Shown one piece after another: positions 28,222 through 46,119 of a stretch of DNA of 64,000 bases (its first letter is position 1; each line of letters opens with the position of its first letter). The translations under genes and the position numbers were made by a program. Under the pieces are notes generated by a model. That model made no database searches. It was not told where the DNA came from and saw only the letters and a list, made by a program, of their open reading frames with translations. Origin of the DNA: Escherichia phage vB_EcoM_I14.1; sequence record PP892526.1; one strand, written 5' to 3'.

Positions 28222-33605
<5,384 letters not shown>

Positions 33606-42910: not shown

Positions 42911-43270
42911 TTATGGGAACAGACACTTGATGTCATCGTTTTTGAAAACGAAACTTGTGTAATTGTGACCATCAACATCCAGCCAAACAGCCTGAACATC
43001 TACACCATCAAGATTGTGGTAAAGCTCTTTGATGAAGTGGTCTTTCACAATCTGGCTGCTAGTTGTTTCCAGCTTAATATTTGAGATTGCTGAACCTACA
43101 GCCATATAACCCATGACACGTTTCTTCTCAGTATGCTTAATCTTACCATCTTTGTAAGCCATAATGAGATTGGAAAGAATCTTCACACCATAATACTTTT
43201 CAAGGTGAGTAGGTACACCATAAAAGCCTAATGCGAAGTTTTCAGAGTGGATAATGTTTTCACGTTTCAT
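42911..43270 (-). CDS. hypothetical protein
   Basis: 119-aa ORF. Confidence 0.6.
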   Translation of the reverse strand: MKRENIIHSENFALGFYGVPTHLEKYYGVKILSNLIMAYKDGKIKHTEKKRVMGYMAVGSAISNIKLETTSSQIVKDHFIKELYHNLDGVDVQAVWLDVDGHNYTSFVFKNDDIKCLFP

Positions 43271-43271
43271 A

Positions 43272-43571
43272 TTAATCTGCCAACCTTAAATTAAAATTAA
43301 CACCAAATTTTTCACATACTTCCAACATAAACTTAAGAGAAACATTACCAGTGAGATTGATTATGTTGGATACACGAGACTGAGAGATACCACAAATTTT
43401 AGCAACTTGCTCTTGAGAAAGGCCTCTGGATTTAATCTCTCTCTTAAAACGATGTGCAACGAAGTCTCTCATTTCGTCTACATCCATTGGACAAATATAA
43501 CTCTCCATTTCAGCCTCTCTGTCAGCCTCCCAATCATCTTGTGGAGCATAAGGGTCAAAAACCTCATTCAT
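43272..43571 (-). CDS. helix-turn-helix DNA-binding protein (XRE-like)
   Basis: LSQEQVAKICGISQSRVSNI motif; ATG at 43571 removes overlap with upstream gene. Confidence 0.6.
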   Translation of the reverse strand: MNEVFDPYAPQDDWEADREAEMESYICPMDVDEMRDFVAHRFKREIKSRGLSQEQVAKICGISQSRVSNIINLTGNVSLKFMLEVCEKFGVNFNLRLAD

Positions 43572-43776
43572 CTTTCTTCTTCCGTTTGCGTGAAGTGTCA
43601 ATCAATGAATCTATGTTTGTAGCTCTGACCTTTTCACGTTCATCGTTAAGATAATCATCAAGAGCCTTTTCAATCTGTGAATCATCTTGACAGATAACTG
43701 TAAAGACTGTAAAGCCGTCTATATCATCAATTATCTTACCATAACCGCTTCTGGGATGTAACTTTTTCAGAGCCAT
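43564..43776 (-). CDS. hypothetical protein
   Basis: 70-aa ORF. Confidence 0.5.
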   Translation of the reverse strand: MALKKLHPRSGYGKIIDDIDGFTVFTVICQDDSQIEKALDDYLNDEREKVRATNIDSLIDTSRKRKKKDE

Positions 43777-43777
43777 A

Positions 43778-44161
43778 TCAAATACCTGTGCAGCTTCTGT
43801 TTTCTAAGAAATACTCAACACCATACATAGCTTTTTGCATCAAATCTTCTTTAAACTGAATACGATGATTAAGCATAGCCTGTACATCAATATCATCATG
43901 GTGCTTCTCTTTAATATTTGCAGATTGCAGGAAATACTCTGCAAGAACACGATACTGATAGTCAGTTACCTTGTCAGTCATCTCTGTTAAAGATTCTTCA
44001 GAGATTGGTTTAAGTAACTCACCATTAGCCAAAGCAACACCTTTAACAATCTGGCAAGTATCTTCTGGAACACCTGATAAGTCCACATTTGGAAGTTCTG
44101 TTGCATTGACTGGTAAATTCATTGCCATAACCATTGCAGCAGCTAATAAAATCTTTTTCAT
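43778..44161 (-). CDS. secreted/periplasmic protein (signal peptide)
   Basis: N-terminal MKKILLAAAMVMAMNLPVNA signal-like sequence. Confidence 0.6.
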   Translation of the reverse strand: MKKILLAAAMVMAMNLPVNATELPNVDLSGVPEDTCQIVKGVALANGELLKPISEESLTEMTDKVTDYQYRVLAEYFLQSANIKEKHHDDIDVQAMLNHRIQFKEDLMQKAMYGVEYFLENRSCTGI

Positions 44162-44277
44162 AATGACCTCAAAGTTATATTAAATTTTGTATTACATTGA
44201 GTATAAAAATAAGCTATAACACCTGACTTGTCAACAGATTTTATAGCTTATTTGGCAGATTTTTTATAAGGCTACTG

Positions 44278-44780
44278 CCATCCTTCCATACCTTACCACA
44301 CCAAACCACACCATACCGAGCCACACCCTACCAGACCCTACCAAACCCGACCGAGCATCACTTAAAAATCCTCTTAGAAGACTCTTAAGTGATGTAATCG
44401 AATTTTAATGTAGCTCCGATTAACTACCCATACCTCACCTTACTTAACCGTACCGCACAGAACCACACCAAACCTAACACCACTTCTCATCACCTTATTA
44501 AAAACCCTGTTTAAAGACCTTTTAAAAAGATGAGTCTCATTTTAATGTAGATGAGACTAACTACCCGCACCGAACCTCACCTGACCTGACAGCACCCGAC
44601 CTCACCGCGCCATACCATACCATACTTCACTTAAAAATCCTCTTAGAAGGCTCTTAAGTGATGTAATCGAATTTTTATGTAGCTCCGATTAACTACCCGC
44701 ACTTTACCAAACCTCACCCTACCCTACCAGACCTTACCTAACCGCGCCGTACCTCATTAAAAGACCCTCTTAAAGACCTT
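44278..44780 (-). repeat. four tandem composite units: (GGTNN)n pentamer tract + 9-bp-stem palindrome + conserved hairpin
   Basis: Minus-strand GGT every 5 nt for 10-15 repeats per tract; palindrome ATCACTTAA..TTAAGTGAT at 44357-44393 and 44627-44663; hairpins TAATCG..CGATTA 44395-44422 and 44664-44691; each followed by ACTACCC. Confidence 0.8.
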
Positions 44781-44805
44781 TTAAAAAGGAGCCTCCGAAG
44801 AGGCT
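44781..44805 (-). terminator. rho-independent terminator after gene 44817..45257
   Basis: AGCCTC-ttcg-GAGGCT then TTTTT on minus strand. Confidence 0.7.
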
Positions 44806-44816
44806 ACCTAGTCAAC

Positions 44817-45257
44817 TTAGAAAGGTTTTCTACGTTGCTTATTAATGTTAGCTTTCATAGCAGCTAAATGGTTTTGCTGTTCAATCAGTCGTGAGCGTTC
44901 TTGATGGCTAAGTGCCATAGTGTTCACATTCTCAATCGCTTGAGTGGCTTGCTTTAAAGCTCGACCAATCTTGCCAGACATTTTACGTTTTGCAATAGTT
45001 GCTTGATGCTTAGGTTCAACCACACGATAACCAACACCCATTGAAGCAACCAGATAAATCTTCTCTTCTTTAAGAAGCTTCTCAATAAACTTCTCAAGTC
45101 GGTTTAGACGTGTAAGCGCATAAGCCTTCATTTCATCTTCGTACTTAACAATGTCACCTTGATAAGTTGGCTTCACAATACCTAAGAATGTGTCCATCTC
45201 AGAATGTGATACAGTGTCACCGTAACTAAACTTTGCTGCTAATGCTTTTGTATTCAT
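44817..45257 (-). CDS. hypothetical protein
   Basis: 146-aa ORF flanked by repeat arrays. Confidence 0.6.
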   Translation of the reverse strand: MNTKALAAKFSYGDTVSHSEMDTFLGIVKPTYQGDIVKYEDEMKAYALTRLNRLEKFIEKLLKEEKIYLVASMGVGYRVVEPKHQATIAKRKMSGKIGRALKQATQAIENVNTMALSHQERSRLIEQQNHLAAMKANINKQRRKPF

Positions 45258-45259
45258 AA

Positions 45260-45865
<606 letters not shown>

Positions 45866-45920
45866 TTAGTTGATTGTTAAGTTGTTTGTAAAGAACCCTC
45901 AACAGAAGACTCTTTAGAAA

Positions 45921-46100
45921 CTTGGTAGATTTTTAACGTGGCTACTACCATCCACCCAGACTTTACCATACCTCACCAGACCATACCTCACCTGGCCGCG
46001 CCTTGCCTTGCCAAACATCACTTAAAAACCCTTTTAAAAGACTCTTAAGTGATGCTGGTGAGTACCCGTTGGTTTATGCTGCTCAGTATACTCACCAAAT
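45921..46100 (-). repeat. fifth copy of the composite unit (GGTNN tract + palindrome + hairpin)
   Basis: GGCTACTACCATCC start matches 44271; palindrome ATCACTTAA..TTAAGTGAT 46007-46033; hairpin GGTGAGTA..TACTCACC. Confidence 0.75.
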
Positions 46101-46119
46101 TTTCTATGTCAACAACTTT

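Follow-up and report, generated by a model that had tools for sequence, protein, structure and literature searches.

The GGYNN tracts of Escherichia phage vB_EcoM_I14.1 as a probable guide-RNA array of a type II VIPR system

The DNA analyzed here ("the window") is a 64,000-nucleotide stretch of Escherichia phage vB_EcoM_I14.1 (PP892526.1). On its minus strand, which also carries all of the surrounding genes, a locus running from 46112 to 44253 consists of a promoter, a first guide RNA gene (vrRNA1), the gene vipr, a 146-aa gene (the vap1 candidate) and four further guide RNA genes (vrRNA2 to vrRNA5). These names are taken from the published VIPR system, to which the locus is assigned below. 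Two guide arrays, one upstream (45923-46022) and one downstream (44253-44782), flank vipr and the 146-aa gene. Each vrRNA is predicted to be an RNA of ~100 nt with a 5′ tract of 11-15 GGYNN pentamers followed by a 3′ pseudoknot tail. The region is 100% identical to that of Escherichia phage vB_EcoM_D4 (Felixounavirus) and is kept, at variable length, in 230 phage records, mostly of Felix-O1-like phages of Escherichia and Salmonella.

A phased scan for GGT at a period of 5 over both strands of the whole window found five tracts, all of them on the minus strand; four span 44268-44768 and the fifth 45943-46012. Parsed in register, the downstream tracts comprise 11, 13, 13 and 15 units and the upstream tract 13. 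A preliminary description of this DNA had reported four tandem minus-strand tracts with GGT every 5 nt in an ORF-free region, and both observations hold: no ORF of at least 40 aa lies inside 44162-44816. It had overlooked vipr and the fifth tract upstream of it (45958-46022), which lies beyond the interval that it covered. Short ORFs within the tracts were discarded as coding sequence, being not conserved and broken in frame by the period of 5. An Rfam scan of 43000-46000 with E up to 10 returned sub-threshold chance matches only. These repeats are not mentioned in the Felix O1 genome paper, which does list others, and nothing relevant was found in the literature on Felixounavirus non-coding RNA and on pentanucleotide or GGU repeats.

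To define the pentamer, 20 related loci were fetched, which gave 73 unique tracts with 887 pentamers from 21 related phages. Position 1 is G in 81% of the pentamers (T 12%, A 7%, C 0%), position 2 is G in 97%, and position 3 is T in 88% and C in 11%, a pyrimidine in 99%. Positions 4 and 5 (NN) are almost random, at ~0.09 bits each. Tracts have 9-18 units, mostly 10-12, and in 71 of the 73 the length preserves the register with both flanks. The elements between the tracts are almost invariant across the related phages, and the tracts vary in sequence, length and number; in the place of the downstream array, relatives have 1-3 tracts. Two candidate functions were discarded on composition: a Shine-Dalgarno-like ribosome sponge (the NN positions have no purine bias) and Chi-like sites (position 3, with its pyrimidine, stands where a complete Chi requires a purine).

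The preliminary description had suggested DNA or RNA G-quadruplexes. The sequence does formally contain the minimal G2N3 pattern, from which two-tetrad quadruplexes could form and act as a structural or regulatory signal. However, a quadruplex needs neither a pyrimidine at position 3 nor a strict 5-nt register over 9-18 units, let alone a register with both flanks, and position 1 is something other than G in 19% of the units. Nor can it explain NN information that matches a foreign element (see below). Published cryo-EM of the 98%-identical SUSP1 system shows the two G bases of each unit flipped singly into protein pockets, with no tetrad stacking (10.64898/2026.04.26.720927). We regard quadruplex formation as a very improbable explanation of the tracts.

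The guide RNA genes and their spacer elements are arranged as follows (all coordinates on the minus strand). vrRNA1 is preceded by a 5′ spacer element, the P hairpin (CATCACTTAAGAG...TTTTTAAGTGATG; 46016..46054), followed by its tract of 13 GGYNN units (45958..46022), of which the first one or two overlap the hairpin and are probably not read. Its 3′ tail (45923..45957) is predicted to fold as an H-type pseudoknot, in which GTGG/CCAC forms stem 1, TGGTAG/CTACCA forms stem 2 and loop 3 is rich in A. vrRNA2 follows a different spacer, the M hairpin (AAAAGGTCTTTAAGAGGGTCTTTT; 44759..44782), and has 11 units (44699..44753) and a predicted pseudoknot tail (44663..44698) with stem 1 GTAG/CTAC and stem 2 TAATCGG/TCGATTA. 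vrRNA3 again follows a P hairpin (44625..44663), with 13 units (44567..44631) and a tail (44531..44566) predicted to pair through GTAG/CTAC and AGTCTCA/TGAGACT. vrRNA4 follows an M hairpin (44500..44523); among its 13 units (44430..44494), five have a first base other than G and one (TGAGA) violates the GGY rule, and its tail (44394..44429) is likewise a predicted pseudoknot. vrRNA5 follows a P hairpin (44356..44394) and has 15 units (44288..44362), the first of which lies inside the hairpin and the last two of which, GGTAA GGTAT, recur in many tracts; its tail (44253..44287) has stem 1 AAGG/CCTT and stem 2 TGGCAG/CTGCCA as predicted pairings.

Two structural elements of the preliminary description are partly borne out by this arrangement. 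The palindrome ATCACTTAA..TTAAGTGAT, assigned there to every unit, does precede two of the four tracts (44625-44663 and 44356-44394), and the remaining two are preceded by another hairpin, AAAAGGTCTTTAA..GGGTCTTTT. The hairpin given as TTTTAATGTAG followed by ACTACCC is the plus-strand reading of the 3′ tail in three tracts; the fourth tail has another sequence and the same fold as the remaining three. Across the related phages, both interleaved stems are present in all 91 tails (22 sequence variants). Stem 1 occurs in three Watson-Crick versions (GTAG/CTAC, GTGG/CCAC and AAGG/CCTT) and stem 2 in four unrelated complementary versions, besides single-side G-U changes. The tails fit a predicted H-type pseudoknot in which both stems covary. 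As a side observation, a P hairpin variant with a ~25-nt loop insertion (AAATTATATTCGATAGAGTATCTCAT) occurs in five relatives (IG1 of L002; IG2 of L004, L016, L017 and L019). CTTTAA motifs in the spacers had prompted the idea of boxA/nut-like antitermination, which was dropped.

Three lines of evidence bear on the direction of transcription. A sigma-70-type promoter (TTGACA-16-TATACT; 46085..46112; 11/12 matches in a consensus scan), kept in related loci, lies directly upstream of the first guide RNA gene. Downstream of vap1, a hairpin followed by a T run (AGCCTCTTCGGAGGCT; 44790..44805) resembles an intrinsic terminator. Finally, the spacer and tail hairpins are more stable as minus-sense RNA than as antisense: a copy of the P element (44622-44664) folds at −15.6 kcal/mol versus −9.8, and a 41-nt stretch around the M element, including part of the vap1 terminator, at −9.0 versus −2.4 kcal/mol. 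The stronger sense folding arises because of G-U pairs. Thus, promoters, terminators and folding all make the G-rich strand the sense strand, as the preliminary description had assumed in calling the minus strand the transcribed one. On the same evidence from promoters and terminators, Rho rut sites on the antisense strand were discarded.

The locus ends at a second sigma-70-type promoter found by the consensus scan (TTGACA-17-TATTTT; 44206..44234), which belongs to the next gene, the 127-aa ORF at 43778-44161. Between the hairpin at 44790-44805 and this promoter, the scan found no sigma-70 promoter for the four-guide array; transcription of the downstream array must therefore use read-through or a promoter that the scan does not recognize. 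The 127-aa gene encodes a signal peptide, and a 19-bp inverted repeat (AAATAAGCTATAA..TTATAGCTTATTT, 89% complementary; 44207-44253) around the −35 region of its promoter could be an operator. Elsewhere in the window, positions 1-1165, the left end of the phage record, form a ~1.1-kb non-coding stretch crowded with same-strand CTTGTTAR / CTGTTAAGA motifs at ~11-nt spacing. The window has 30 matches to CTKGTTAR; 12 of them, all plus-strand, lie within positions 1-961. The stretch also has CTTAACAATTT repeats that resemble boxA, and is a possible terminal, packaging or regulator-binding region.

A search for a protein partner used the tracts themselves. IMG/VR was scanned for seven phased GGT units, which recovered, besides simple microsatellites, many unrelated viral contigs whose tracts are degenerate and non-coding. 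Often these tracts stand head to tail in arrays of 10-13 units, with GGCA or GGCTAATG between them and with terminator hairpins, oriented as for the G-rich strand, at the end. When the ORFs of 70 such tract loci were clustered, one family of ~190 aa was shared by 40 of them, always adjoining the tracts and in the same orientation. This family includes the window ORF 45260-45862, which lies between the two window arrays. Separately, we noted other array styles beside a vipr homologue in unrelated contigs (L130 0-340, L120 2826-3147, L139 2943-3283, L140 3395-3843 and L023 6113-6498), in which tracts of 9-14 units directly adjoin one another. Only a 4-nt GGCA (register shift −1) or GGCTAATG (+3) separates the tracts in these five contigs, and a terminator hairpin closes each array.

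This co-occurrence bears on the proposal of a replication origin, an iteron array or a packaging signal. Transcription of the G-rich strand might form R-loops, with the displaced (GGTNN)n as loading sites for primase or helicase. T7-type primases read G/T-rich pentamers, and the locus lies among replication genes (ligase, polymerase) behind a strong promoter. In the 40 unrelated viral contigs, however, the tracts keep company with vipr and not with replication genes. Among near-identical related phages, the number of tracts ranges from 1 to 5 per intergenic region, and an origin would not require hypervariable NN pairs that match satellite genes by a fixed skip rule. An origin, iterons or a packaging signal therefore have hardly any chance of being the right reading, and neither these roles nor that of a protein-binding decoy, all raised in the preliminary description, found support. 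Its further suggestion of a structured RNA array came close to the truth: the tracts are best read as guide RNAs of an RNA-guided DNA-binding system, beside the gene of an RNA-binding RAMP protein.

The partner is that gene. The mechanical ORF starts from a GTG at 45862; homologues agree with an ATG at 45847, which gives a 195-aa protein (vipr, 45260..45847, minus strand). The family, with more than 500 members, has no Pfam domain and no name. Among solved structures, a profile of 38 homologues retrieved only PDB 36pp_D, "SUSP1 Vipr protein" (E = 6.4e-81), and the window protein is identical to SUSP1 Vipr at 191 of 195 residues (98%). Its AF2 model (pLDDT 94.7) has as best PDB fold matches the Csm3/Cas7 RAMPs, which build the backbone of CRISPR complexes of types III and VII, and the protein contains the G-loop GVGDWRP. 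Nine residues that are published RNA/DNA contacts in SUSP1 Vipr, where they grip GGY and the skipped base (H17, K33, E71, M72, R138, C173, D177, W178 and R179), are all kept in the alignment of the window protein to SUSP1 Vipr; H17, K33, R138 and R179 are invariant or nearly so across the 38 homologues.

Downstream of vipr, the 146-aa gene (44817..45257, minus strand) occupies the same position as the sole other gene of the SUSP1 locus and, by synteny only, is probably vap1 (vipr accessory protein). The protein is 99-100% identical across the clade. A homologue search returned 3 proteins only, and a single-sequence model (pLDDT 68) had no significant structural match; its weak top fold matches were winged-helix regulators (E ≥ 0.2).

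A 5-nt step with a triplet-plus-spacer design and a mode of 10-13 units also resembles the binding sites of TRAP from Bacillus, in which triplets separated by 2-nt spacers, in ~11 units of single-stranded RNA, each bind one subunit. On this reading, the array would be a sponge or attenuator RNA for a TRAP-like ring protein, titrating a host factor or controlling a downstream gene. The triplet here is GGY and not the (G/U)AG of TRAP, and the spacers carry information whereas those of TRAP are neutral. Ten neighboring ORFs gave no Pfam match for such a protein, and E. coli is not known to have TRAP. The protein that is linked to the tracts is a RAMP, which by its fold matches and by published cryo-EM forms a helical filament rather than the 11-mer ring of TRAP. 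We give this reading very little credence.

VIPR (Viral Interference Programmable Repeat) was described in two 2026 bioRxiv preprints (10.64898/2026.04.26.720920 and 10.64898/2026.04.26.720927). It combines Vipr, a minimal RAMP built of an RRM core, a thumb and a G-loop, with vrRNAs in which 9-16 YNNGG repeats precede a conserved 3′ tail. Phage SUSP1 has four vrRNAs, one ahead of vipr and vap1 and three behind them; they are expressed as RNAs of ~100 nt and co-purify with Vipr. [quoted passage not shown] The natural targets in the SUSP1 clade converge on a satellite phage, which has a baseplate gene in common with SUSP1. The published work on SUSP1 includes experiments by small-RNA-seq, co-purification and cryo-EM and on binding, GFP repression and phage defence (10.64898/2026.04.26.720920; 10.64898/2026.04.26.720927). 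The 3′ tail of the SUSP1 clade is a pseudoknot (10.64898/2026.04.26.720920).

The window locus resembles the SUSP1 type II system in gene order and neighborhood (ligase ... DHFR), in the identity of Vipr (98%) and of the 146-aa neighbor (99%), in its GGY/NN tracts and four tail types, and in having one guide upstream and an array downstream. It differs in three respects. First, the window phage has four downstream guides versus three in SUSP1, because a 269-bp two-guide unit has been duplicated; the unit is present twice, with 76% identity between the copies, and two guides were gained in this way. Second, the NN identity of the window guides to those of SUSP1 is 0.32-0.60, against a chance level near 0.25-0.5 in this best-of-n comparison. 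Third, one window guide (vrRNA4) is an orphan, as described next.

To find what the guides might read, we needed copies of the satellite. The lookup was seeded with the window homologue (30449-31246) of the baseplate gene common to the satellite and SUSP1. Chromosomal copies of this gene were present in 474 of 5426 complete E. coli genomes and, among the best-ranked matches, were 91-95% identical to it in nucleotide sequence over ~70% of its length. Six satellite copies (L143-L148) were fetched with flanking chromosome. The satellite is an integrated element of ~11-15 kb (4.3-19 kb of L143 and ~3.5-15.4 kb of L144-L148) found at no fewer than three insertion sites (ymdF-wrbA, yciI-tonB and yecN-yecD). 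It carries one or two recombinase genes, a tape-measure gene, a baseplate gene and Felix-like tail genes. A Dam-like methylase gene is present in three of the six copies, and IS elements disrupt several. None of the six contains a period-5 tract.

The NN list of each guide was slid over both strands with 0-3 skipped bases. With a 1-nt skip, vrRNA1 matched at 22 of 26 NN positions in a satellite recombinase gene (L144 14465-14502) and vrRNA3 at 23 of 26, with 11 consecutive perfect units, in the same kind of gene (L143 18554-18591). vrRNA5 matched there as well, at 22 of 30 overall and at 22 of 24 over its 12 central units (L148 14177-14220). The gene targeted by these three guides is a serine-recombinase gene. 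vrRNA2 matched at 20 of 22 in an intergenic region (L145 9574-9605), 56-87 bp upstream of a conserved 235-aa gene. Unit-order shuffles reached the total score of vrRNA1, vrRNA2 or vrRNA3 in 0 of 200 cases. The total score of vrRNA5 was borderline, being reached by 4 of 200, and by local score none of 100 shuffles reached any of the four guides. Skips of 0, 2 or 3 bases gave only background scores for the window guides on the six copies, and the best self-matches within the window were also at background. Within each of the three coding targets, the base that is skipped is the third (wobble) base of the codon. Thus, four of the five window guides obey the 1-nt skip (NNx) rule on the E. coli satellite, and they share with SUSP1 both this rule and convergence on the same kind of satellite.

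For vrRNA4, no target was found in the six satellite copies, and an exact-pattern search of IMG/VR gave no match. Because its GGY units are degenerate and it is the sole window guide without a detectable target, vrRNA4 may be a decaying guide; it may also be aimed differently. Across the clade, 40 of the 73 guides had significant matches, all of them inside the satellite, and none of the 73 matched the flanking chromosomal half of the same loci.

Our conclusion, with a probability of roughly 0.93, is that the phage carries a type II VIPR system belonging to the SUSP1 clade and that this region forms its downstream guide-RNA array. In its sequence, the locus has the features of a VIPR system throughout, namely a vipr gene with the contact residues of its product, GGY/NN tracts, predicted pseudoknot tails, the locus layout and NNx target matches. 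By analogy with SUSP1, Vipr, a minimal Cas7-like RAMP, would polymerize on each vrRNA with one protomer per pentamer, flipping each G-G-Y into its pockets so that only the two N bases stay accessible. Strung together, these NN pairs would then base-pair with double-stranded target DNA as NNx, skipping every third base of the target, and the gapped R-loop/triplex so formed would block transcription. A protein that grips each GGY would also account for the 99% pyrimidine at position 3, the strict register and the informative NN pairs.

The VIPR machinery has clear parallels in the backbones of class 1 CRISPR-Cas complexes (Cas7/Csm3 on crRNA): the RAMP fold with its thumb and G-rich loop, one protomer per fixed RNA step with periodic base flipping, and arrays in which a variable guide is joined to a conserved structured handle. 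In each 5-nt step, VIPR buries three bases and reads two; CRISPR, by contrast, reads five and flips one. VIPR also reads its target with a 1-nt gap. Unlike class 1 CRISPR-Cas, this VIPR type has no Cas1/Cas2, CRISPR repeat, PAM or nuclease; its carrier is a lytic phage, and its target is a second mobile element. A CRISPR-Cas array as such was discarded for the window. Instead of one identical direct repeat between contiguous spacers, the window has three or more kinds of conserved element (P, M and tails) and, as its variable parts, period-5 tracts; among ten neighboring ORFs, there was no Cas1/Cas2 or other Pfam-recognizable cas gene.

The guides vary far more than the genes that they flank. 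Between phages of the clade, the vipr and vap genes are 94-98% identical in nucleotide sequence (83-95% at third codon positions), and guide NN identity is near chance, save for occasional identical cassettes. Even so, the agreement of an individual clade guide with a satellite gene can extend to 22 of 22 NN positions, and the locus contains no adaptation gene. The same guide cassette is found at different array positions, with different tails, in different phages. As an example, the cassette GTGTGGCACGGTAATG...GGTCAGGTCAGGTCAGGTGAGG has the terminal tail GGAAGGATGGCAG in three loci (L001 3216-3280, L006 3642 and L012 3642) and the internal tail GGGTAGTTA in another (L008 3632). Also, vrRNA3 of the window has only its 3′ half in common with a guide of L016. 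The guides appear to be shuffled, even recombined within tracts. There are at least two possibilities for how guides are acquired. A dedicated process that converts target sequence to the GGY-interleaved form, beyond the exchange of P/M/tail cassettes, seems unlikely. In a milder version, recombination of co-infecting phages at the conserved elements would be the entire acquisition mechanism.

VIPR as a system is already described, and the finding is not new in that respect. VIPR is a newly described form of RNA-guided DNA recognition with a non-contiguous code and a proposed ancestor of the CRISPR RAMP proteins. The window adds a naturally occurring locus with five guides, carried by a lytic Felix-O1-like coliphage, with the 1-nt skip code confirmed independently, from guides and satellite copies gathered without the published target lists. 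It also adds (i) specific targets, of which three lie within the serine recombinase gene and the fourth lies ahead of a conserved gene, (ii) examples of arrays that grow when a unit is duplicated and of cassettes shuffled from phage to phage, and (iii) a phased GGT scan that by itself recovers vipr genes in unrelated viral contigs. In current annotation, labels for the intergenic regions do not go beyond "repeat_region", "terminator" or "promoter", and the protein is called hypothetical; these can now be named. For the phage itself, the putative targets suggest that it most likely uses these guides during infection to silence a satellite that would otherwise parasitize it.
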